Assembly (NCBI RefSeq): GCF_022655035.1
Contig: NZ_JALCUA010000002.1
Location: 34,745-98,744 of the forward strand
DNA: 64,000 bases
Reading direction: 5' to 3'
Origin: Bifidobacterium tibiigranuli
GTDB taxonomy: Bacteria > Actinomycetota > Actinomycetes > Actinomycetales > Bifidobacteriaceae
The position numbers were made by a program, and so were the translations under genes. Every line of letters begins with the position of its first letter. The stretch's first letter is position 1. This document shows positions 10,823-23,550 of the stretch, piece by piece. The notes below the pieces were generated by a model. It was not told where the DNA came from. It saw only the letters and a program-made list of their open reading frames with translations, and searched no databases.

Positions 10823-12448
10823 ATGAGTGCACACCATCCGCTCGCCGTCATCATCGGCATGCCCGGAGCAGGCAAGACCCGCGTCGGGCATCAGGCCGCA
10901 TCGATGCTCGGCGTGGCATTCATCGATGCCGACCAGCGCGTTGAGGATGAGGCGCGCATGGGCATTCCGCAGTACTTCGAACGCTACGGCGAGAAGGCGT
11001 TCCGTGATTTGGAATCCTCGCTGATTCGTGAGCTGCTCGATGGCTATGACGGCCTGCTTTCCCTCGGCGGCGGCGCTCCGATGACCCCAGCTACGCGGCA
11101 GTCCCTTGTCGACTATGTTCACGGCGGCGGACGGCTGATCTACTTACAAGCCGATCCAAAGGAAGCTATGGAACGTGCGCGGCGAGGTGGCAACCGGCCG
11201 ATGCTCAAAGGCGACCCTGACGCGCGTTGGAAGCAGCTGTTCGAGGAACGAGACCCGGTGTTCTCCGAGCTGGCGAACATCCATGTGCGCACGCACGGGT
11301 CGACGCCGCAAATGGCGGCGCGGAAACTGACGGAGGCGATTATGCAACGAACAATCCATGTCACCGGCTCGTCCATCGAGCCCTACGATGTGCGCGTCGG
11401 CGAAAGCGTGATGCAGCAGCTGCCTGAGATTCTGGGGGAGCGCCCCACGAAAATCGCGCTGATTCACACCCAGCCGGTGCAGCGCCACAGCGATCATGCG
11501 CGCGCGCTGCTGCGCCGGGCGGGCTATAGCGTCTCGGACGTCGTGATACCCGATGCCGAAGCAGGCAAAACCAATCCGGTGGCCAACGACATCTGGGAGC
11601 GGCTGGGCAATGAGGGCTTCACCCGTTCCGATGCGGTTGTCGGGCTCGGCGGCGGAGCGGCCACCGATCTGGCCGGATTTGTGGCTGCGACCTGGATGCG
11701 CGGCATCCGTTACGTGAACTGCCCGACTTCGCTGCTGGCGATGGTCGACGCCTCGACTGGCGGCAAAACCGGCATCAACACGCCGCAGGGCAAGAATCTG
11801 GTCGGCTCTTTCTACACGCCGGCAGGCGTGCTCGCCGATCTCAAAACGCTGGCTACGCTTCCCAATGACATCTTCACCGAAGGACTTGGCGAGGTCGCCA
11901 AATCCGGACTCATCATGGACGAGGGCATCCTTGACCTGCTTGAGGATCACGGCGAGGAGTTGCGCGCATTCGACGGCGCACAGTTCCTTGGTTCCCCGCT
12001 CGAAGGCGTCGTCTCCGAGCTCATCGAGCGCACCGTGCGGGTCAAGGCCTACCATGTCTCCAGCGACCTCAAGGAGGCCGGGCTGCGCGAATTCCTCAAC
12101 TACGGCCACACGCTGGCCCATGCCATCGAGACGCTTGAGCACTTCCGCTGGCGGCACGGCAACGCGGTCGCGGTCGGATGCGTCTACGCGGCTGAGCTGG
12201 CTGGCCTCCTCGGCTATCTCGACAAGGACGAGGTCGATTACCACCGTTCGCTGCTCGGGTCCTTGGGGCTGCCCACGTCTTGGCATCATGAGGACTGGGA
12301 CGAAGTGCTCGCCCTGATGCATCGCGACAAGAAGGCGCGCGGCAATCACCTGCGCTTCGTGATTCTGGATGGCATCGGCCACCCGATTCACCTCGAAGAC
12401 CCGCCGCAGGACGCCGTGCACGAGGCCTTCGTGCGCATTCAGCAGTAG
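10823..12448 (+). CDS. aroB: Bifunctional shikimate kinase / 3-dehydroquinate synthase (AroK-AroB fusion)
   Basis: N-terminal GMPGAGKT...SLGGG...RPML (AroK); C-terminal [34 protein letters not shown] (AroB). Confidence 0.95.
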
Positions 12449-12460
12449 CTTTAGGGCAGT

Positions 12461-12484
12461 TTGACGGCGGGGGGGGGGTATTCT
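12461..12484 (+). promoter_or_regulatory. Putative sigma-70 promoter with a G10 homopolymer in the -35/-10 spacer
   Basis: TTGACG (12461-66), GC, G10 (12469-78), TATTCT (12479-84); 56 nt upstream of the surface-protein ATG. Confidence 0.5.
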
Positions 12485-12540
12485 TTTGCTGGGAAGGCTA
12501 CGGTGCCTCGCCATTGAGAAGCAGAAGGGAATTTCTCCAT

Positions 12541-14910
12541 ATGAGACGTTTAACGAGGGCGGCCGTCGCATTTTTGGCCGCAGTGTGCACGATGTTCGTA
12601 AGCGCTGGAGCGCTGGTGCTGAGTTCCGGTCAAGCTCAGGCTGCCGATAATACATGCGTAGTCGATCAAAGCACTATCGCCCAGTGCTTCCCGGATCCGG
12701 CGCTTGCACAGGCTGTTGCGAGTGGACTCGGAACGCACATTACAACGTCGAATATTTTGACCTCGACCGCTGTGAAATATACGACGAGTTTAAGTGTTAT
12801 TTCTGGTACGGTTTACAGCTTGAAAGGTGTTAATTCTCTTACCAATCTCAGATGGCTGTGGCTTAATGGTAGCGAAGTATCAGATCTTTCCCCTGTAAGC
12901 ACTATGACAAGTCTTGAAAGCCTAGCTTTGGAGAAGAATCAAATTTCTGATTTGTCCCCATTAAAGAATCTCACCAATCTTAGAGATCTGTGGCTGCGAT
13001 CAAATCGCATTACAGATCTTACGCCCCTAGCGGGCCTCCCCAATCTTGATAGCAACCTTGATCTTTCTGATCAATATGTATCGTTGCCGTCAGTTAGTGG
13101 CACAAAAGGCGTCGTTATACGCACCGCAAAGAATGTGGATGGCACCTATATTGCGCCTTATGCTTTGCAGCCTTCCTCTGGCGTATATGACGCGAAAACC
13201 GGTGAAGCGTCTTGGACGAATCTTACAAGTGGGAAAACCGCTTCTCTGAATGTAGATACACCGGTCACAATCGGAAGCACTAGTGCTCGCTACTCCTTAC
13301 AGATTGACCAGCCATACACGCTGTCGGCCAATGTTTCGTTCGATGCGAACGGCGGAAAGTTCGCCGACAAGTCCACGCTGCAGACCAAGGCGGCGACCGT
13401 GGGCAGTGGATATGTTTTCCCGCAAGAGCCATCGCGCCAGGGATACTCGTTCGACGGATGGTACACATCTGCCGAGGGAGGGACCCAAGTCAATTCATGG
13501 GATACCGTCCCTGATTCCTCAAGTCGCACATTATATGCGCATTGGTCGGTGAAGCCTATTGCGGTCACGTTCGATGCTAATGGCGGTGCCTTCTCGAACG
13601 GAGCATCGGCGCAGGAGAACGACATTAAGCCGGGCAGCAAATATGTGCTGCCGCCAAATCCGTCCCGTGTCGGTTACTCATTCGACGGTTGGTACACCAA
13701 GGCAGTTGGCGGAAACAAGCTCGATGGTTCTGCGACAATACCCAGCAACGTCGATTCGCAGACCTTCTACGCGCATTGGGCCGCAAATTCAGTTGTGGTC
13801 ATGTTCGACGCGAACGGCGGTGCGTTCTCGAACGGCAGCTCAAGTCAGAAGCTGAATTCGACATTCGGGAAACCGTACACATTGCCTGCGAATCCAACTC
13901 GCGCAGGCTATTCTTTCGCTGGCTGGTATACCGGCAAGGATGATTTCTGGCCTGGAAACCAGATAACAGCAGCATCCGTGGTCTCAGACGTTTCTGATCA
14001 AACGTTGTACGCCCATTGGGATGTGCAGCCAGTGAACGTATCGTTCGACGCAAACGGCGGAAAGTTCTCTGACGGCTCCGGGCTGCAGAAGCGAACCATG
14101 ACATTAAACGAGTGGTATGACTTACCCGAGAATCCCTCGCGCATTGGCTACTCCTTCAACGGCTGGTACACGGCCAAAAGCGGAGGAACGCAAGTCGATG
14201 CCTTCACCACGGTCACCGCAACTTCCAGCCGCGCCCTATACGCACAATGGACTGCGAATTCGGTCACAGTCACATTCGACACGAATGGCGGCACATTCCC
14301 CAATGGGGCCCCTACCCAGATAAACGACCAGAAATTCGGCGACGCATACTCCCTGCCCAGCAACCCGACACGGACCGGCTACACCTTTAACGGCTGGTAC
14401 ACAGCCAAAACAGGTGGCAACAAGATTACGGCATCCGCAACAATTGCTGCAGCCGGCAATCAAACGTTGTATGCACAATGGACTGAGAACAAGGCAGTGC
14501 CGGTTGCTGTGTACCGCGTTTACAACAAGAACTCTGGTCTGCATCATTACACGACGAATCTGGGTGAGAAGAATGCGTTGGTTAAGCTGGGTTGGAAGTA
14601 CGAGGGCGTGTCGTTCAACGCGGCCACGCAGGGCTCGGCTCCCGGCTTGAAGCCGGTCTATCGTGAGTACAATCCGCATGATGGGAATCACAACTGGACG
14701 CTGAACCAGGCGAAGCACAGCAAACTCGTGAGCCTGGGCTGGCATGACGAGGGCGTGGCGTGGTATGCGAACCCGGCTGGGCCGGTTACGGTCTACCGCC
14801 TGTATAATCCGCATTCGGGCGAGCACGTGTATACGACGAGTGCGAAGGAGTATGCGGTGGTTGGTGCGGCCGGCTGGCATCAGGAAGGCACCGCTTGGAA
14901 AGGCCTGTGA
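12541..14910 (+). CDS. Secreted internalin-like surface protein: signal peptide, internalin cap + LRRs, Ig-like region, five InlB B-repeats (Listeria-Bacteroides repeat), C-terminal DUF5648-like module
   Basis: Signal peptide ending AQA|ADN; cap 'IAQCFPDPALAQAV'; 22-aa LRRs (LTNLRDLWLRSNRITDLTPL); five 'V.FDANGG...P.R.GY.F.GWYT...TLYA.W' repeats; 'VYRLYNPHSGEHVYTTS..E...GW..EG.AW'. No LPXTG motif. Confidence 0.85.
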   Translation: MRRLTRAAVAFLAAVCTMFVSAGALVLSSGQAQAADNTCVVDQSTIAQCFPDPALAQAVASGLGTHITTSNILTSTAVKYTTSLSVISGTVYSLKGVNSLTNLRWLWLNGSEVSDLSPVSTMTSLESLALEKNQISDLSPLKNLTNLRDLWLRSNRITDLTPLAGLPNLDSNLDLSDQYVSLPSVSGTKGVVIRTAKNVDGTYIAPYALQPSSGVYDAKTGEASWTNLTSGKTASLNVDTPVTIGSTSARYSLQIDQPYTLSANVSFDANGGKFADKSTLQTKAATVGSGYVFPQEPSRQGYSFDGWYTSAEGGTQVNSWDTVPDSSSRTLYAHWSVKPIAVTFDANGGAFSNGASAQENDIKPGSKYVLPPNPSRVGYSFDGWYTKAVGGNKLDGSATIPSNVDSQTFYAHWAANSVVVMFDANGGAFSNGSSSQKLNSTFGKPYTLPANPTRAGYSFAGWYTGKDDFWPGNQITAASVVSDVSDQTLYAHWDVQPVNVSFDANGGKFSDGSGLQKRTMTLNEWYDLPENPSRIGYSFNGWYTAKSGGTQVDAFTTVTATSSRALYAQWTANSVTVTFDTNGGTFPNGAPTQINDQKFGDAYSLPSNPTRTGYTFNGWYTAKTGGNKITASATIAAAGNQTLYAQWTENKAVPVAVYRVYNKNSGLHHYTTNLGEKNALVKLGWKYEGVSFNAATQGSAPGLKPVYREYNPHDGNHNWTLNQAKHSKLVSLGWHDEGVAWYANPAGPVTVYRLYNPHSGEHVYTTSAKEYAVVGAAGWHQEGTAWKGL

Positions 14911-14986
14911 TAGTTTCCTGCGGGTGTGGCGTGGCATTGCGAGGTGTTGGGCTGTATGAATTGAATGCTATCGTCTGAGCTCGGAT

Positions 14987-15053
14987 ACTAATGCGAAGGC
15001 GGGTGGACTGATTCCTCGATAAGAGGAGCCAGCCCGCCCGCCTTCGCATTAGT
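14987..15053. terminator. Long hairpin (terminator or REP-like) at the left edge of the three-gene module
   Basis: Perfect 17-bp arms 14987-15003/15037-15053, extended by an imperfect inner stem closing a GATAA loop. Confidence 0.65.
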
Positions 15054-15146
15054 CTAGATACCGTACGCATCGCGCATGTCATTCAAAGTGTGAAGTAGAA
15101 TGTGAAGTGTCGGCGATGAAATACTGGATAAAGGAAGTAGGGCAAG

Positions 15147-15938
15147 ATGTCCCAGACACTATTAAAGTCTCCGCTTACACTTGTTTTGACGCGTGTCGAA
15201 TTTAATGCTGAACTGACTGCTCTTTCTGCTGAAGGATGGCCTAAGCTCGATTCTATTATGCAGTCAATTGGATTCCCTGCTGCGAATACTGTTAATGACG
15301 CCACAATTCAACTCACTCCTGCGGGGCCTATGCAGGTATCTCAAGGTAGTCGCCGTGTCTATCAGGATGCAAATGGCGGATTGCGTGTTTCCGTGGCTCC
15401 GCAATTTATCGCGCTATATGCCGGACGTGTGAACGATGTAATTGCCTATGAAGACCACGAAGCCTTTCTTAGCAAGTTTCGGGAGATTATTACGGCACTG
15501 ATGCCAATTGTGGGCGAAATGCCTGTGACGAGAACCGGGTATCGCTACGTGGATCAGCTGATCGGCGAGGATTTTACGCAAGTGGATAAGTTGCTGCGTC
15601 CTGCATGCAGGGGCGTATTGCCGTCCGAGGTTCCCCAAGGTGCTCAACTGCTTGCATCGGCTTTGCGTGCGCAGTTTTCTTATACCAATTCAGATAATGT
15701 TCAGCCTGACGTGCTTCAGATGCAAAGCGGCCAGATTCCCAAAGGCCAGCCGATTGACCCAGGCGTGCCGGTTCTTGACCAAGATTCGTGGGTTTTGGAT
15801 ATTGATACATCGGCCTTTGCTCCGGTAGCTTTTACAGCCGATGTGGTTATAGCAACTGCGTCTCGGCTGCAGCAGCGAGCTAGGGAATTTTTTGAGAATA
15901 CTGCAGTTACTGATGAATTCGAGCGTCGATTCCGCTGA
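15147..15938 (+). CDS. TIGR04255-family protein (function unknown)
   Basis: 263 aa with the family pattern 'SPL..V...VEF', 'VTRTGYRYVDQL', 'VLDIDTS', 'REFFE..VTDEF..RF'. Confidence 0.8.
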   Translation: MSQTLLKSPLTLVLTRVEFNAELTALSAEGWPKLDSIMQSIGFPAANTVNDATIQLTPAGPMQVSQGSRRVYQDANGGLRVSVAPQFIALYAGRVNDVIAYEDHEAFLSKFREIITALMPIVGEMPVTRTGYRYVDQLIGEDFTQVDKLLRPACRGVLPSEVPQGAQLLASALRAQFSYTNSDNVQPDVLQMQSGQIPKGQPIDPGVPVLDQDSWVLDIDTSAFAPVAFTADVVIATASRLQQRAREFFENTAVTDEFERRFR

Positions 15939-16026
15939 TATTTTCGTTGTGCAGTTGGGTGGTGTCTGGTCAAGATTCGAGAAAAGTCTCTAGTCAATTA
16001 CGCGACGTACCCTAAACCATGAGAGA

Positions 16027-16674
16027 GTGATAGTTATGGAACAACTTGTGCAGAGACGCATCGGCTCAACAACAACGGCTGCTGTACTTGTTTTTGGACT
16101 CATGGCACCTGCCGTTTCACCTATATGGAGTGATTGGTCACTAAACGGCGGACTGCCATTTGCACAGCAGAGCACCGCGTATTTTGACAGTTTTTTTGCG
16201 GAACCGGGCAGTTCGACTGTTACTGCTGCCCTTCCAGGCATACCGACATTGAGACAAGTGACAGCTCAACTTGTTGATTCTCGCAGTCGTTCGTCGGACT
16301 CAGCCGATGAGGACGATTCGCCGAATACCGGTGCCTTGATTCGCGAAGTGCAGGAACGTTCGGGGCTTACAGGTCAGCAGTTAGCTAAGGTGCTGGGCGT
16401 TTCCCGCCGCACGCTGTATCTATGGGCGAACGGAGGAACGATGAGTGCGGCGCATAGCGAGTCGCTTGCTAAATTCGATGCTCTTGTTCGTGAATATGAT
16501 GCCGAAGATCCATCCGCCACGAGATTGGCCCTGCTGAGGTCAGATGTCGATGGTTTGAGTGCATTCGATCGCTTCCGTGTTGAGCGCGATGCCGCTTCTC
16601 CTGAAATTACCGATTTCCTGTTGTCCGCATCCAAGCTTCTCGCTCCCAATATCCCTGACGCACAAACGGTATAG
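16027..16674 (+). CDS. XRE-type HTH protein with a ~100-aa N-terminal extension (antitoxin-like)
   Basis: 'LIREVQERSGLTGQQLAKVLGVSRRTLYLWANG' is a classic XRE HTH. Start may be the GTG at 16027 or the ATG three codons later (MEQL). Confidence 0.75.
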   Translation: MIVMEQLVQRRIGSTTTAAVLVFGLMAPAVSPIWSDWSLNGGLPFAQQSTAYFDSFFAEPGSSTVTAALPGIPTLRQVTAQLVDSRSRSSDSADEDDSPNTGALIREVQERSGLTGQQLAKVLGVSRRTLYLWANGGTMSAAHSESLAKFDALVREYDAEDPSATRLALLRSDVDGLSAFDRFRVERDAASPEITDFLLSASKLLAPNIPDAQTV

Positions 16675-16691
16675 CTTCGAAAGACGATGAT

Positions 16692-17615
16692 ATGACAAGC
16701 CCCTACTCCATGCCGCTGCGACAAGGTGATGTGCTCGCGACACTGAACCAGATTCCTGAATTTACAGGAATCGACAGGATGGTTGAGTGGCAGACTGCTC
16801 CTCTGGGCCTCGTCGTAGTTTCGCAAACATGTGATGCGATACGTGACTCGTGCATTCAAGTTGCACCAATCGTTGAACTCGAAGGAGATTTGGCGCGGCA
16901 GGCACAGGTCGGACGGCGACCACGGTACGCCCCTCTTGCCGAGAATAGTGAAAACTCGAAGTTCGCTGACCTTAGCCATATCATGACCATTAATCGTGGC
17001 CAAGTAGTGACGGCAGAAGACGGTACTCCTTCTCCGGAGGGGCTTGTTAGTGTTGCCGCGGAAAAGCTTTTCCGCAATTTTGTAGGACGTCGCTTCGCAA
17101 GGTTCCCTTTTCCCGATGAGGTAACGGACTGGTGCAGGCCGTTGACCGACAAAGTTGCGCCAAAAGCTAGACACGCGGATACCAAACCTGAAGGTGCTCG
17201 GCTTGATGAGATTAAAGAGATACGGGTTGCCGCGTCTAGCGGATGGTCGCAACCACCATTTCATTTGCAGCTCGATTTCCTTGTTGAGCCGGGCATCCTT
17301 CCGGAGCCGGATCGAGATCTCGCAAATGCTGAGCGGGAAAGGCTGCTGAGCATGCCAGCTTCCTCTCTTGCTGCTGAGATTGATGCGTTGAGGCATAACG
17401 CTGACGAAGGCGCAGCTACAATGCGGGCGTTCGCGTGGAACCAACTTATTACTTGCTGGGTGGAGAGTTGCAATGGCAAGTACAGCCAAGAGCGGAACAA
17501 TGGAGTTCAAGTTCATGGGGACGGTCGGCTGTGGGATCTAGATGACTACCCATATTCACAAGCATTGCGTTCGGAACGCCTCGACTTGGATTATCTGAGT
17601 CGTTCCGGCGAATAG
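16692..17615 (+). CDS. Hypothetical protein with an N-terminal MazF/PemK-like barrel and an unknown C-terminal domain
   Basis: 'LRQGDVL...LVVVSQTCD...IQVAPIV...FADLSHIMTI' follows the MazF GD / VVxS / V.P spacing. 17 nt gap after the previous gene. Confidence 0.55.
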   Translation: MTSPYSMPLRQGDVLATLNQIPEFTGIDRMVEWQTAPLGLVVVSQTCDAIRDSCIQVAPIVELEGDLARQAQVGRRPRYAPLAENSENSKFADLSHIMTINRGQVVTAEDGTPSPEGLVSVAAEKLFRNFVGRRFARFPFPDEVTDWCRPLTDKVAPKARHADTKPEGARLDEIKEIRVAASSGWSQPPFHLQLDFLVEPGILPEPDRDLANAERERLLSMPASSLAAEIDALRHNADEGAATMRAFAWNQLITCWVESCNGKYSQERNNGVQVHGDGRLWDLDDYPYSQALRSERLDLDYLSRSGE

Positions 17616-17742
17616 CGCGACTTGGGTTTGCACTCTATCACCTCGGGTATTTGCGAGGCTGTAAATTGTAACGGTTTGGACCTTCTGTGTTGGTTTATGC
17701 GCAGCGTTGCGGATACGTTGGGGTAACAGCAAATCATGCAGC

Positions 17743-17818
17743 AAGCAATTCCCGCACTGACCTTGCTATCATGCGGGGAATGTGATGGTTGACTGGCTTG
17801 AAATGACGCAATTCCCGC
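17743..17818. repeat. Second copy of the TCCCGCA/TGCGGG REP-like hairpin family
   Basis: AAGCAATTCCCGCAC-N10-ATCATGCGGG has the same arms and spacer length as 2153-2187; a further GCAATTCCCGC half-arm at about 17808-17818. Confidence 0.7.
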
Positions 17819-17922
17819 GCAGGGCCTGAGCAGTCTCAAGGGGCATCGCAGCACCTCCGATGGGCTGTTTTCCTGCTTGCTGATGCTGCGGTGCTCCCGC
17901 GATGCCCAGTGCCCAGCGCGAT

Positions 17923-18990
17923 TCAGCTATGGTCTTTCTGTCGCTGTCGGCTCCGCTGCCGACGCCACTGGACGATTACCGAGGCCAGTGACGCTATATT
18001 CGCAGCAAGCAGAGCAAAGCCGAAGCTGTTGGAAAATGCGCCATGGCCCATATATCCGAGCCAGAGTGCGGTGACATAGACAATGTCGACCAGCACGATG
18101 GCACCATACAGCCACACACGGCTCAGCTCTTTATGCGGGGAGCGCGGGAAGCGCTGCGCATATACCTCGGCAGGGCCGAATTCCTCCACCAGTTTTGATT
18201 CCGATTGCGCCGCATATTGTCGGGCGTCAGTGCAGATCTGCCTGACACGCCGTGTGGATATGTCGCCGCGCGACTGCAACGCTCCGGCAAGGTCTGAAAG
18301 CCACGCTTCATCATCGGCAAACAGGTCGTCGGCCGACAGGCCGGAAAGCTCAGGCTCCGGCGGCCATAGCCTTCCGGTAATCCACGTCACGAGGGCATAC
18401 ACCGCCGCCGCAGGCAGCATGATGAGCCACATTGCCACCCGTGCCATCGGAATTTGCTGAATAAGCCACGCATATCCCGCAGTCGCACAAGTGCCGATTA
18501 CAACAAGAACGGCGCATGACAGCACTGCCGCCGGCATAGGTCTGGTCTGAATGACACGCTGATATATGCCCATGCATCCAACGATTATCCAGGATATCAG
18601 CAGCGGCATGGCAGCGATGGCTACAGGCAGCCTGTCACTCCCTTCGATGCAGAACATCACGGATAACACGCTTGCCGAGGCAAAGCCCACGAGGACTAAA
18701 TCACGTACTGGGAGCACTTGCGTTTGGAAGGCGTCAATCCCCATTTCCCGCCATTGCCGAACCTGTTCATCCGCCCATTCCTGCGGTTCCCCGAATAATT
18801 CGGCTATCGCTTCGTCGGATTCAGCCAGAGTCTCCGGAACGCCATCGAAAGCGAGGCGCGCATGATGAACGTCAACATGGTCATCGATGAAAGCGAGAAC
18901 GGCTCTGGCAAACCATTTCGTATCTTCCGCACGCCCTCGTACGGCAGCGAACCGCTCTTCCACATCATTCAATGGTTGATTGCCAGCCAT
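17923..18990 (-). CDS. Membrane protein with two HAAS/DUF1700-like helical domains
   Basis: Two repeats 'W...L...l...E....ELFGEP.EWA' and 'WLSDL...L..RG......EEFGPAEVYA', each followed by TM helices; start overlaps the padR stop. Confidence 0.65.
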   Translation of the reverse strand: MAGNQPLNDVEERFAAVRGRAEDTKWFARAVLAFIDDHVDVHHARLAFDGVPETLAESDEAIAELFGEPQEWADEQVRQWREMGIDAFQTQVLPVRDLVLVGFASASVLSVMFCIEGSDRLPVAIAAMPLLISWIIVGCMGIYQRVIQTRPMPAAVLSCAVLVVIGTCATAGYAWLIQQIPMARVAMWLIMLPAAAVYALVTWITGRLWPPEPELSGLSADDLFADDEAWLSDLAGALQSRGDISTRRVRQICTDARQYAAQSESKLVEEFGPAEVYAQRFPRSPHKELSRVWLYGAIVLVDIVYVTALWLGYMGHGAFSNSFGFALLAANIASLASVIVQWRRQRSRQRQKDHS

Positions 18991-19388
18991 GATGCCTCGT
19001 CCTTCCCCGCAGTATCCACGGCTTCCTCCGCACCGGGACCAGCGTGCAGCGCCGCAGCTAGTGCGCTCCACTGCTTCCGTTCGTCACGCAGGCGACTTTG
19101 CCCTGCATCCGTGAGCGCATATACCTTTCGGCCCGGTCCGGAGCTGGCTTCCTCCCATTGGGAGGTGAGCCAGCCGCCTTCGGTCAACTCATCGAGGATC
19201 GGATACAGCGAGCCTCCTTTGGGCCTTCCGAAACCGTTGGCTTCCAACGCCAACACGATGCCATAGCCGTGCAGGGGCTCGTGCTCCACGGTTTGCAGAA
19301 TCGCAGTGCGCATTGCTGCGCGAATCCATAATGCGGGCCAGCGGGCGGCGTCAGCAGTGTGACGAGCCGACTTATTAGTTTCGAACAT
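18969..19388 (-). CDS. PadR-family transcriptional regulator
   Basis: 'HGYGI...GSLYPILDELTEGGWLTSQW...GPGRKVYALTDAG'. Confidence 0.92.
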   Translation of the reverse strand: MFETNKSARHTADAARWPALWIRAAMRTAILQTVEHEPLHGYGIVLALEANGFGRPKGGSLYPILDELTEGGWLTSQWEEASSGPGRKVYALTDAGQSRLRDERKQWSALAAALHAGPGAEEAVDTAGKDEASWLAINH

Positions 19389-19416
19389 ATATCTAAGTAT
19401 ATCATATATCTAGATA
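19386..19416. promoter_or_regulatory. Candidate PadR operator / AT-rich divergent promoter
   Basis: CATATATCTA repeated at 19386 and 19403; palindrome TATCTAGATA at 19407-19416, right at the padR start. Confidence 0.5.
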
Positions 19417-19532
19417 GTTAAATTGTATATGGCAGCAAATTACCGCGTCATTGGTACTAGGGGATTAGGTTTTATATGATAAGTCCGGCAGAGAACATTC
19501 AGCACAACTTTTGGAGAAGGAAGACAGCAGTC

Positions 19533-20000
19533 ATGGAAGCAACGCACAAGGGCACCCGCAACGTCATCGTCGTCAATGGACCGAATCTGGGGCGCTTGGG
19601 CGTGCGCGAGCCCGACGTCTATGGCAGTGACGACCTGGCCGCGCTGACCAGGCTGTGCGAAGGCTGGGGCAGCGAGCTCGGCCTGCATGTCGAAGTGCGC
19701 CAGAGCGACGACGAAGCCGAGATGATCGGCTGGATGCATCGCGCCGTCGACGAGCAGACACCGGTGGTGATGAACCCGGCGGCCTTCACTCATTACAGCT
19801 ATGGCCTGTCCGACGCCGCCCACATGGTTACGGACGCGGGATTGCCGCTTATGGAGGTCCACATCTCCAATCCCTCGGCGCGTGATTCCTTCCGCAAGTA
19901 CAGCGTGATTTCACCGGTGGCCACCGGCACCATCACCGGCATGGGCTTCTACGGCTACCGGCTGGCCCTGGAGGCGGTTGCCCACCTCCTTGGTGCGTAA
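19533..20000 (+). CDS. aroQ: Type II 3-dehydroquinate dehydratase
   Basis: VVNGPNLGRLGVREPDVYG, NPAAFTHYS, EVHISN, G.GFYGY.LAL. Confidence 0.96.
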   Translation: MEATHKGTRNVIVVNGPNLGRLGVREPDVYGSDDLAALTRLCEGWGSELGLHVEVRQSDDEAEMIGWMHRAVDEQTPVVMNPAAFTHYSYGLSDAAHMVTDAGLPLMEVHISNPSARDSFRKYSVISPVATGTITGMGFYGYRLALEAVAHLLGA

Positions 20001-20089
20001 CGGAGCCTTTGGCTCCGTTCTTCGCAGCCTTAACGGCTGCTCACCTCACCTACAGACAGTCCACTGGACTGTCTGCTTAACGGTTCAGC
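19999..20089. repeat. Multi-hairpin dispersed repeat (70-nt core plus adjacent hairpin)
   Basis: Hairpins AACGGAGCC/GGCTCCGTT, GCAGCC/GGCTGC and CAGACAGTCC/GGACTGTCTG. The reverse complement of 20020-20089 aligns without gaps to 49619-49688 (55/70 identical). Confidence 0.8.
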
Positions 20090-20124
20090 GCACAAGTCAT
20101 ATGCGAATGATAGATTGAAGTTCC

Positions 20125-21786
20125 ATGGTTAGAAGACAACATGGCAATTCGCAAGAGCACGTCACCAAGCATATTTTCGTCACAGGCGGCGTTGTCTCGT
20201 CCCTTGGCAAGGGGCTGACCGCCTCATCGCTGGGCAGGCTGCTGCGCAGCCGCGGCATCCGGGTGCTGCAGCAGAAGCTCGATCCCTACATCAACGTGGA
20301 TCCGGGCACAATGAACCCGTTCCAGCACGGCGAGGTCTACGTGACTGAGGACGGCGCGGAAACCGATCTCGACATCGGCCACTACGAGCGCTTCCTCGAC
20401 GTGTTCCTGTCGCAGAAGGCCAATGTGACCACCGGGCAGATCTACCAGTCGGTGATCGACAAGGAGCGCGCGGGGGAGTACCTCGGCCAGTGCGTGCAGG
20501 TCATCCCGCACATCACCAATGAGATCAAAAGCCGCATGCGTGCGCAGGCCTCTGATGATGTCGACGTGATCATCACCGAAATCGGCGGTACGGTCGGCGA
20601 CATCGAATCGCAGCCCTTCATGGAGGCGGCCCGCGAGGTGCGCCGCGATCTGGGCAGCGATAACTGCATGTTCGTCCACGTCTCGCTGGTGCCGTACATC
20701 GCCGCCGCGCACGAGCTGAAAACCAAGCCGACCCAGCATTCCGTCATGGCGCTGCGTCAGCTCGGCATCGTCCCCGACGCGCTCGTGCTGCGTTCGGACC
20801 GCCCGCTCAACCAGTCCATCAAGGACAAGATCTCGCTCATGTGCGACGTGGACCCGCAGGGCGTGGTCAACTGCGTCGACGCGCCGAGCATCTACGATGT
20901 GCCCAAGATTCTTTTCGACGAAGGGCTCGACGCCTACGTCGTACGCGAGCTTGAGCTGCCATTCCATGATGTGGACTGGGCCGAATGGGAGAACCTGCTC
21001 GACCGCGTGCACCACCCCAAGCATGAGGTCAACATCGCCATCGTCGGCAAGTACATCGATCTGCCTGACGCCTACCTCTCCGTCACCGAGGCCATCAAGG
21101 CCGGCGGCTTCGCCAATTACGCGAAGGCGAACGTCAAGTGGGTGGCCGCTGATCTGTGCGAGACCACCGAAGGCGCGCGCGAACAGCTCGCTGACGTTGA
21201 CGGCATCGTGATTCCCGGCGGCTTCGGCATCCGCGGCATCGAAGGCAAGATCGGCGCGCTCAAATACGTGCGCGAGAACAAGATGCCCGCCCTCGGCCTG
21301 TGCCTCGGCTTGCAGTCGATGGTCATCGAATACTCGAGGCATGTGCTGGGGCTTGAGGACGCGAACTCCTCGGAGTTCGAAAGCGACTGCGAGAATCCGG
21401 TGATCGCCACGATGGAGGAGCAGAAGGACATCGTCGCGGGCAACGGCGATATGGGCCACACCATGCGCCTAGGCTCCTACCCAGCCGAACTCGAAGAAGG
21501 CTCGCTGGTTTCGCAGCTGTACGGCACCACGCACGTGACCGAACGCCACCGCCACCGCTACGAGGTGAATGTGGCCTACAAGGACCGCTTGCGCGAGGCC
21601 GGCCTCAACATCAGCGGCCAGAGCCCGGACGGCGAACTCACCGAATTCGTGGAGCTGCCGCAGGATGTGCATCCGTTCTACGTCGGCACCCAGGCCCACC
21701 CCGAGTTCAAGTCCCGCCCCACCAAGCCGCATCCGCTCTTCGCTGGACTGGTCAAGGCCGCGCTCGACCACCAGACCGCGCGCTGA
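20125..21786 (+). CDS. pyrG: CTP synthase
   Basis: [51 protein letters not shown]. Confidence 0.98.
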
Positions 21787-21795
21787 GAAGCAGAC

Positions 21796-21848
21796 TACTG
21801 GCATGAAAAGGCCGCTGACCATTCGTCAGCGGCCTTTTCATGCCAGTA
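21796..21848. terminator. Terminator hairpin after pyrG
   Basis: Perfect 24-bp stem (21796-21819/21825-21848) with a 5-nt loop. Confidence 0.8.
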
Positions 21849-22053
21849 AGCCGAGGATAACGCTACAAAACGGATGCTAACGAGGCGCATTGCCGAAGAG
21901 AGGCGACAGTACCGGCCATAAGCGCAACGCACCCCGAACTGTGCGCAAAATCACGTCCTTGCTTGGCCGACAGGTGAACGCTCCCTAGTATTTCGGCCTG
22001 ACTTCTGTTAGGTTTACCTCTGGTACTTTCCCAAGGAATGGAGGCCGCGTACG

Positions 22054-23550
22054 GTGGTTGAGAAACAAACACCCAACGCCGCGTCTGACATGGAGATGAG
22101 CCAATATGTGGCTGATCGAGAACGTGTCAACGAGGAGAAAATCAAACAGGACGAAGAGATCCTTGATCAATTCGGCGAGTACGGCTACGGCTGGCATGAT
22201 TCGGATGCCGCCGGCGAAGCCGCGCAGAAGGGCATCGACGAGAGTGTGGTCCGCGCCATATCGGCCGATAAGGGCGAGCCGGAATGGATGCTCGACTATC
22301 GCCTGAAAGGCTATCAGGCGTTTCTCGACAAGCCCATGCCCGACTGGGGCGTGGATCTGTCGGAGTTCCATGCCGAGAACTTCAAGTATTACGTGAAGCC
22401 GCTCGACAAACAGGCCAAGAGCTGGGAGGACCTGCCCGACGACATCCGCAACACCTACGACAGGCTCGGCATCCCCGAGGCGGAGAAGAAGCGCTTGGTG
22501 TCCGGCGTCGCGGCGCAGTACGAGTCCGAGGTCATCTACAACTCGATACGCGAGGACCTCAAGGAGCAGGGCGTCATCTTCGTCGACACCGATACCGCGG
22601 TGCGCGATTACCCCGAGCTGGTCAAGAAGTACTTCACGACCGTGATTCCGGCCGACGACAACAAGTTCGCCGCGCTCAACACAGCCGCATGGTCGGGCGG
22701 TTCCTTCGTGTACGTGCCCAAGGGCGTCCACGTCGACATCCCGCTGCAGGCCTACTTCCGCATCAACACGCCGAACATGGGCCAGTTCGAGCGCACGCTG
22801 ATCATCGCCGACGAAGGTGCCTACGTGCATTATGTCGAAGGCTGCACCGCGCCGATCTACGCCACCGACTCGCTGCACGCTGCCAACGTGGAGATTGTCG
22901 TGGAAAAGGGCGCACGCGTGCGCTACACGACCGTGCAGAACTGGTCGACGAACGTCTACAATCTCGTGACCCAGCGCGCCTATGTGCGCGAGGGCGGCAC
23001 GATGGAGTGGATCGACGGCAACATCGGCTCCAAGGCCACGATGAAGTACCCCTCATGCATTCTCGCCGAGCCGTATGCCAAGGCGGAGACCATGTCGCTG
23101 GGTTTCGCGGGCGAAGGCCAATATCAGGACACCGGCGCGAAGATGATTCATCTGGCGCCGCACACCAGCTCGACCATCGTCTCCAAGTCGATCTCCCGCT
23201 CCGGCGGGCGCGCCGCCTACCGCGGTCTCGTCAAGATCATCAAGGGCGCTGAGGGCTCAAGCTCCTCCGTGGTATGCGATGCGCTGCTGGTCGATGAGAT
23301 TTCGCGTTCCGATACCTACCCGCATGTGGATGTGCGCGAGGACGACGTGTCGATGGCCCACGAGGCCACCGTTTCCAAGGTCTCCGAGGACCAGCTCTTC
23401 TATCTCATGAGCCGTGGGCTCGAAGAGAAGGAGGCTATGGGCATGATCGTGCGCGGCTTCGTGGAGCCGATCAGCCGCGAGCTGCCGATGGAGTACGCGC
23501 TCGAACTCAACAGACTTGTGGAACTGCAGATGGAAGGATCGGTGGGCTGA
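22054..23550 (+). CDS. sufB: Fe-S cluster assembly protein SufB
   Basis: [38 protein letters not shown]. Confidence 0.97.

Follow-up and report, generated by a model that had tools for sequence, protein, structure and literature searches.

A length-variable poly-G tract between promoter-like boxes at the edge of a Bifidobacterium tibiigranuli island: a probable promoter-spacer contingency locus

The island next to aroKB and the motif at its left end

The stretch of DNA analysed here (64 kb, hereafter the window) carried an aroK-aroB fusion gene (aroKB), which was the last core gene before an inserted island and at whose stop codon the conservation with relatives ended. The genes and larger features of the region were the following:

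10823..12448, plus strand: aroKB, encoding shikimate kinase and 3-dehydroquinate synthase in one protein of 541 aa (Pfam SKI, DHQ_synthase and DHQS_C)
12455..17826, plus strand: inserted island of 5,372 bp, with the LRR gene, a hairpin and a three-gene cassette (263-aa, HTH and 307-aa ORFs)
12541..14910, plus strand: LRR gene, encoding a secreted protein of 789 aa with a signal peptide, an LRR region, five InlB-type B repeats and a C-terminal DUF5648
14987..15053, plus strand: hairpin with 31-bp arms (repeat I1), 3' of the LRR gene and without a U tract

The GC content of the island was 52.7%, compared with 60-62% in its flanks. The relative G103 (~95.5% nucleotide identity) was without the island, and its homology to the window ran to 12454 and began again at 17827 (L081 1-328 corresponded to window 12127-12454, and L081 332-6001 to window 17827-23493). 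The insertion point was 6 nt 3' of the aroB stop. This precise presence/absence junction and the deviant base composition identified 12455-17826 as a horizontally acquired island. Among 36 other species of the genus, no homology was found beyond the aroB stop, and the species representatives therefore offered no orthologous intergenic region. The island ends were searched for terminal repeats and target duplications, and none were found. A block of four genes (LRR, 263-aa, HTH and ~302-aa ORFs) was also observed at a different site in a 'B. tibiigranuli' MAG (L046, L148).

The Pfam matches of the LRR protein were LRR_4, Flg_new (five stretches) and DUF5648, and the LPXTG motif was absent from its 789 residues. 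Compared with an ortholog of 87% identity, the gene displayed a dS of 0.43 and a dN/dS of 0.17; such purifying selection indicated that it is in use. The hairpin behind it had a folding energy of -57.9 kcal/mol (z = -8.0), and 0/200 shuffles folded equally well. It probably separates the LRR gene from the three-gene cassette, as a terminator or as an insulator, and the LRR gene was accordingly regarded as a single-gene unit.

The 92-nt gap between the aroB stop and the ATG of the LRR gene (12541) comprised the following elements:

12446-12448, plus strand: stop codon of aroKB, whose 3' end cagcagTAG is followed by ctttagggcagt and then by TTGACG
12455..12468, plus strand: left-end block GGCAGTTTGACGGC (14 nt), which includes the -35-like hexamer; 13/14 in other copies of the module
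12461..12466, plus strand: -35-like hexamer TTGACG (5/6 compared with TTGACA; TTGGCG in homologous modules)
12467-12468, plus strand: GC dinucleotide, forming the 12-nt spacer together with G10
12469..12478, plus strand: G10 homopolymer, in the spacer between the -35-like and -10-like boxes
12479..12484, plus strand: -10-like hexamer TATTCT (T1, A2 and T6 retained; TAATCT in homologs)
12490..12492, plus strand: putative transcription start, placed by sigma-70-type geometry 6-8 nt 3' of the -10 hexamer
12524..12530, plus strand: Shine-Dalgarno-like GAAGGGA, 10 nt 5' of the ATG (GAGGAGA in homologs)

The island opened with GGCAGTTTGACGGC followed by G10, and the -35-like box therefore lay 6 nt inside its left edge. 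The distance from the motif to the ATG was 62 nt. The earlier note had given TTGACG-GC-G10-TATTCT with a spacer of 12 nt, and this was read back unchanged at 12461-12484; its arithmetic, in which G15 would produce a 17-nt spacer, also holds. G10 was, as had been remarked there, the only homopolymer of its kind, being the sole G/C run of at least 7 nt in the 64 kb. The other homopolymers of at least 7 nt in the window amounted to a single T7.

A canonical-promoter scan of the 92-nt gap (consensus rule of 9/12 matches and a spacer of 16-18 nt) found no alternative promoter. Two candidates, TTGCTG-17-CGCCAT and GGGTAT-17-TACGGT, were rejected as poor, and their -10 candidates were not conserved in homologous modules. 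A start site within the G run, leading to reiterative transcription, was rejected as well: the sole -10-like sequence upstream was TAGCTT, which overlapped the aroB stop, outside the island module and 17 nt 5' of the G run. A search of Rfam at 12300-12750 returned no known RNA element. In a read-through RNA (window 12472-12540), base pairing is possible between the G run plus UUCUUUUGCU and the Shine-Dalgarno-containing AGCAGAAGGGAAUUUCUCC; this fold was no better than shuffles (z = -0.44), and the homologs were without compensatory changes. Neither a terminator nor a significant hairpin was found between the aroB stop and the ATG, and read-through from aroKB could therefore supply expression of the LRR gene at any tract length.

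Tract-length variation in a portable module

The tract was present in 11 assemblies of the window locus, with identical flanks, although many of these assemblies belong to a single series of JGI samples and may represent the same clone. By exact-protein look-ups, the same module was located in two further genomic contexts, in front of LRR genes that were nearly identical, under the source labels 'Bifidobacterium subtile' and 'MAG B. tibiigranuli'. One context was downstream of a divergently transcribed GH25-DUF5648 gene and the other was beside a transposase fragment. In the GH25 context, read-through from a same-strand gene cannot drive the LRR gene, because the upstream gene is on the opposite strand.

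Homology among the module copies began at GGCAGTTTG in all contexts. The left-end block was 13/14 identical in L049, L149, L150, L156 and L157, and the sequence 5' of it was unrelated. Identity with the window was 13/14 for the -35 block, 11/12 for the -10 block (the hexamer and the next 6 nt) and 36-37/50 for the remainder of the leader; judged by these alignments, the -35 and -10 blocks are the best-conserved part of the portable upstream module. The tract itself differed in length among the contexts:

Window locus: ten assemblies with G10, one with G9 (L154); their proteins were no more than one residue apart
GH25 context: G11 (L149, L150), G13 (L049) and at least G12 (L050, where the contig begins in the tract)
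Further loci of the GH25 context: a poly-C artefact in L048, and a GGC duplication, G12 and AG in L148
Transposase context: G12 (L156) and G11 (L157, L158)

Among loci whose 559-aa proteins were at least 99.3% identical, G11 was found four times, and G12, G13 and a tract of at least G12 once each. The tract of the 87% ortholog consisted of a GGC duplication, G12 and AG. Within each group, the proteins were 0-4 residues apart and the flanks were identical or differed by one base. The comparison of strains that the earlier note had proposed thus returned a tract of variable length, with G9 or G10 here and G11, G12 and G13 at homologous loci. With TTGNCG as the -35 hexamer, the spacers of all sampled alleles were 11, 12, 13, 14, 15 and 19 nt, and no allele among them had a spacer of 16-18 nt. 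With the shifted hexamer TTTGNC every spacer became one longer, and G13 with TTTGGC, at 16 nt, was the sole case to reach that range.

Length differences were also seen at other tracts. Between the genome analysed here and G103 (95.5%), two tracts differed as 8 vs 10 and 9 vs 10, with 300 nt of flank 100% identical. One-base differences between short-read assemblies may be homopolymer errors; those between G11 and G13 and between 8 and 10 are harder to dismiss in this way. Other G8-9 tracts were interrupted already at the ~5% divergence between these two genomes, whereas the G run of the module was uninterrupted over a dS of 0.43. As far as these alignments indicate, the G run has stayed intact at a divergence where runs free of constraint are lost. 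The length changes between fixed flanks give good support to a hypermutable spacer tract. Two metagenome contigs ended in the tract (L048 1-108 and L050 1-12), and L048 ran into a stretch of over 100 C's, an assembly artefact of poly-G reads. Since contigs are cut short at the tract, short-read assemblies probably capture too few of the long alleles, and ON alleles may be hidden among them.

Contigs that started near other LRR paralogs (C1 and C8 of the same genome; P0017, P0029 and P0030) had been suspected of breaking at G tracts as well. This was refuted: the paralogs had a different, tract-less upstream module, and the breaks were due to repeated signal-peptide sequence. The different module (AAAAAGATGAAAAGTTTTTTGGCG..TTTTGCGTGCTTTGCTGTGT) was located upstream of three LRR paralogs (C1:~23230, C1:~20170 and C8:~112620, minus strand) and of metagenome homologs, one instance being L051 1330-1400. 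That these paralogs share the module suggests a separate common regulator. A search for related loci with P0006 found only distant DUF5648/B-repeat relatives, in B. goeldii, B. callitrichos and B. santillanense, and none of them had the module of the window.

G tracts in the genome and the genus

In the 2.55-Mb genome, ~24 G/C runs of at least 10 nt were expected from base composition and 10 were seen. The probability that a run continued went down to 0.07 at 5 to 6 bases and up to 0.57-0.71 at 7 to 10, and runs of 6-8 were avoided. Runs of at least 9 numbered 14 (lengths 9-12), compared with 0.04-3.5 expected from the decay at 5-7. Because the genome otherwise purges runs, the long tracts (9-12) formed a separate class. 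TAnnnT was located directly 3' of the tract in 3/13 distinct long tracts and at a 1-nt offset in a fourth; with a background of 0.0039 per position, the probability of 3/13 such adjacencies was 1.6e-5. A scan of 121 genomes of the genus recovered 174 sites of G9 followed by TAnnnT, compared with 51 for reversed-pattern controls (p = 7e-17). Pattern scans for the promoter with a variable gap, or with a leader or CDS anchor, gave no match in the metagenome and genome contig collections scanned, which evidently held no relevant samples.

Several other tracts of the genome lay in or near genes. The G10 at G000:C4:88629-88638 split a MalT/LuxR-type regulator into ORFs of 583 and 258 aa, and G11 or G8 would restore a single ORF of 794 aa; from the reading frames, this tract has the appearance of an ON/OFF switch inside the gene, at present in the OFF state. 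The G9 at G000:C3:161239-161247 (minus strand) directly followed a Shine-Dalgarno sequence and ATG-GAG-T, 5' of an acyltransferase-3 gene that is currently out of frame. This gene was located behind one for a collagen-repeat/pectate-lyase-like protein resembling a tail fibre. A G11-TACTGT was observed at G000:C4:175362-175372, in the divergent gap between an EPS priming glycosyltransferase gene (Bac_transf) and a DUF4012 gene, and the start of Bac_transf was 30 nt away from it. A G9-TATTTT (G000:C8:85881-85889) was found 115 nt 5' of a gene for a secreted PPC-DUF5648 protein, whose C-terminus shared 88% identity with the C-terminus of the LRR protein. The latter tract was G10 in G103 between 300 nt of identical flanks (L086/L087), and a second tract close by (C8:71183-71190) had 8 nt here and 10 in G103. 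It thus seems that G-tract switches of two types, acting on the frame or on the promoter, operate in this organism, largely at envelope-related genes.

Within the genus, one example showed a textbook TTGACG-17-TATTCT with G13 (L061). This textbook G13 promoter, in G091, was considered as support for a link with surface proteins and was rejected, as the downstream gene encodes a small transposase-like HTH protein. Two other species shared TTGACC-12-TATTGT with G10 (L074/L075), and many pairs of G run and -10 box in the genus had no plausible -35. Because two species share the 12-nt arrangement, short spacers are perhaps normal for G-tract promoters, and if so the -35-like box may not be used canonically. 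A conserved CTAGAATCCGCC was observed ~15-20 nt 5' of G10-G11 tracts in three genomes (L065, L066 and C1:503971-503981 of the present one), the last tract being 362 nt 5' of a gene for an NMT1/THI5-like binding protein. Small genomes of the genus (1.2-1.7 Mb; e.g., G012, G113, G107, G031) contained up to 6-10 copies of GGGGGGGGGTATGTT or close variants, which may be a G-tract promoter repeat or a dispersed element.

Readings of the tract and comparison with known switches

The mapped promoters of B. breve have the form TTGACA-17-TATAAT, with a spacer rarely below 14 or above 20 nt; there the -10 element dominates, and among the predictors of expression spacer length ranks second (PMC5746004). 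Here, we propose, with a little better than an even chance of being right, that the G tract is a slippage-driven promoter-spacer switch of the LRR gene's own sigma-70-type promoter. The island would carry this promoter as the first element inside its left end. Slipped-strand mispairing at replication would add or remove G's, and their number would set how far apart TTGACG and TATTCT lie, and at what angle to each other, and in this way the strength of the promoter. At G10, and occasionally G9, the lineage would have a spacer of 11-12 nt; as mapped bifidobacterial promoters have spacers of 14-20 nt, the promoter is predicted to have very little activity or none, and any expression of the LRR gene in the G10 lineage would come from aroKB read-through. 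The sister alleles G11-G13 would be nearer to the functional range, and G14-G16 should fall within the consensus rule of the scanner (9/12 matches, 16-18 nt). G10 is four to six additions short of the optimum, so this would not be a one-step switch.

The earlier note had called the motif a likely phase-variable promoter. The boxes, the position of the tract and the length differences between strains support this in part; promoter activity, its dependence on tract length, and how fast and how reversibly the tract switches are what we infer. [quoted passage not shown] We consider the motif a probable promoter-spacer contingency locus at a currently silent or weak length.

Slippage could also proceed without an effect on expression, if the LRR gene were transcribed mainly by read-through from aroKB and the island promoter were a decayed, contracted relic. 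The start of the island 6 nt past the aroB stop, with no terminator or significant hairpin before the ATG, would suit this explanation, as would a spacer of 11-12 nt, far under any functional range, and a lineage almost fixed at G10 (10/11 assemblies). However, the module also fronts the gene where there is no same-strand upstream gene (L049, L149, L156), and its boxes and uninterrupted tract survived a dS of 0.43. The pairing of the G run and UUCUUUUGCU with the Shine-Dalgarno region would disfavour translation of such an RNA too, but the fold was not significant. We consider this explanation unlikely. It is distinctly unlikely, in our estimation, that the motif is a working promoter independent of the -35, in which the G run abutting TAnnnT provides, with a G at -14, a contact like that of an extended -10; the length of the tract would then be of little importance and its variation would be neutral slippage. 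That would agree with the genus-wide direct adjacency of G tracts and TAnnnT (174 vs 51), with the many tracts that have no sensibly placed TTG hexamer or a conserved short one (L058, L064-66, L070-75) and with the dominance of the -10 element in B. breve (PMC5746004). On the other hand, TTGNCG was conserved just upstream in every copy of the module, and an uninterrupted run of 9-13 G far exceeds the need of one contact at -14. The true extended -10 motif, moreover, is TGn, not GGG.

The tract is only 14 nt from the left boundary of the island, and long tracts elsewhere in the genome do not adjoin promoter-like boxes. Both points would accord with another role, in protein binding, in recombination or integration at the end of the island or in forming a nucleic-acid structure, the likeness to a promoter spacer being accidental. 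Such a role is very improbable, given that the island ends lack target-site duplications and terminal repeats, that one G run cannot form an intramolecular quadruplex, that a match in Rfam was absent and that the adjacency to TAnnnT is statistically non-random. Illumina sequencing is error-prone at poly-G, and L048 begins with more than 100 C's at the tract; nevertheless, the eleven assemblies from JGI, NCBI and Logan agreed on G9-G10 with the same flanks, and a sequencing or assembly artefact, with next to no probability left, was effectively refuted.

In the reading preferred here, that of a promoter-spacer switch, the locus bears on how bifidobacteria vary their surface. Phase variation in these bacteria is established only for intragenic G tracts of pilus genes; replication slippage at tracts of G10-G12 was demonstrated in B. 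breve, and promoter-spacer G tracts were mentioned in the same work and not studied (PMC9187656). The poly-G spacer switch is thus a type well known in general, and for promoters in Bifidobacterium, where such tracts were never analysed, it has not been worked out. The present locus offers a clean test case, as a single-gene unit with a defined island edge and natural G9-G13 alleles on almost identical backgrounds. The internalin-like surface protein may govern attachment, and the named relatives (B. tibiigranuli, B. subtile) are species of water-kefir grains. If the tract tunes expression, heterogeneity of surface proteins would arise in the genus at transcription as well as at translation, and a switch could travel along with the gene that it controls. 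For annotation, database lengths of G tracts and contig breaks at tracts need care. A wider proposal, which we hold only tentatively and consider doubtful, is that of a portable 'switch cassette' (-35, mutable G run, -10, leader and signal peptide) that accompanies LRR adhesin genes as they move across sites and species. It would be one of a genus-wide class of promoters with G9-G13 abutting the -10, perhaps at short spacers, and part of a phasome of a dozen loci, together with intragenic tracts, even without host association.

In its arrangement, the motif is similar to the promoters of porA and opc in Neisseria meningitidis, where a G/C homopolymer of ~9-14 nt lies between the -35 and the -10. 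The opc gene is subject to phase variation through a poly-C in its promoter spacer. For porA, poly-G length is reported to set the expression level of the surface protein, and alleles to differ among close isolates (PMC3639595). In Neisseria, the lengths lie on both sides of the optimal 17-nt spacing, and expression was measured, whereas the alleles sampled here are shorter, with one longer, and are known from sequence alone. The host is also unlike Neisseria, being a Gram-positive actinobacterium and no pathogen, apparently of a fermented-beverage community.

Repeat number in the spacer, or just 5' of the -10, likewise tunes the promoters of hifA/hifB in Haemophilus influenzae (TA repeats) and of fim in Bordetella (poly-C). 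The poly-C switch of the Bordetella fimbrial promoters depends on the activator BvgA. These systems differ from the present one in the repeat unit or in activator dependence, and no divergent gene pair is controlled here. The TA-repeat switch of the hifA/hifB fimbrial promoters is cited in the B. breve report (PMC9187656).

Within the same genus, the sortase-pilus switch of B. breve UCC2003 (Penno et al., 2022; PMC9187656) has an element of G10-G12, at which slippage was shown by maximum-depth sequencing, and its target is also a surface structure; the statement of the earlier note that poly-G tracts are reported for bifidobacterial pilus loci is thus documented. However, the pilus switch is intragenic and acts via the translational frame, whereas the tract here lies 62 nt 5' of the start codon. 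The reading frame of the LRR gene is not entered from any start codon 5' of the tract, which sets the locus apart from an intragenic frameshift switch; because no ORF crosses the tract into the gene, any effect of the tract must be transcriptional. The protein, as distinct from the switch, resembles the InlB-type internalins of Listeria in its signal peptide, LRR region, B repeats, non-covalent C-terminal module and lack of LPXTG; its C-terminal module, however, is DUF5648 instead of the GW repeats of Listeria, and identity to Listeria proteins is only ~31%.
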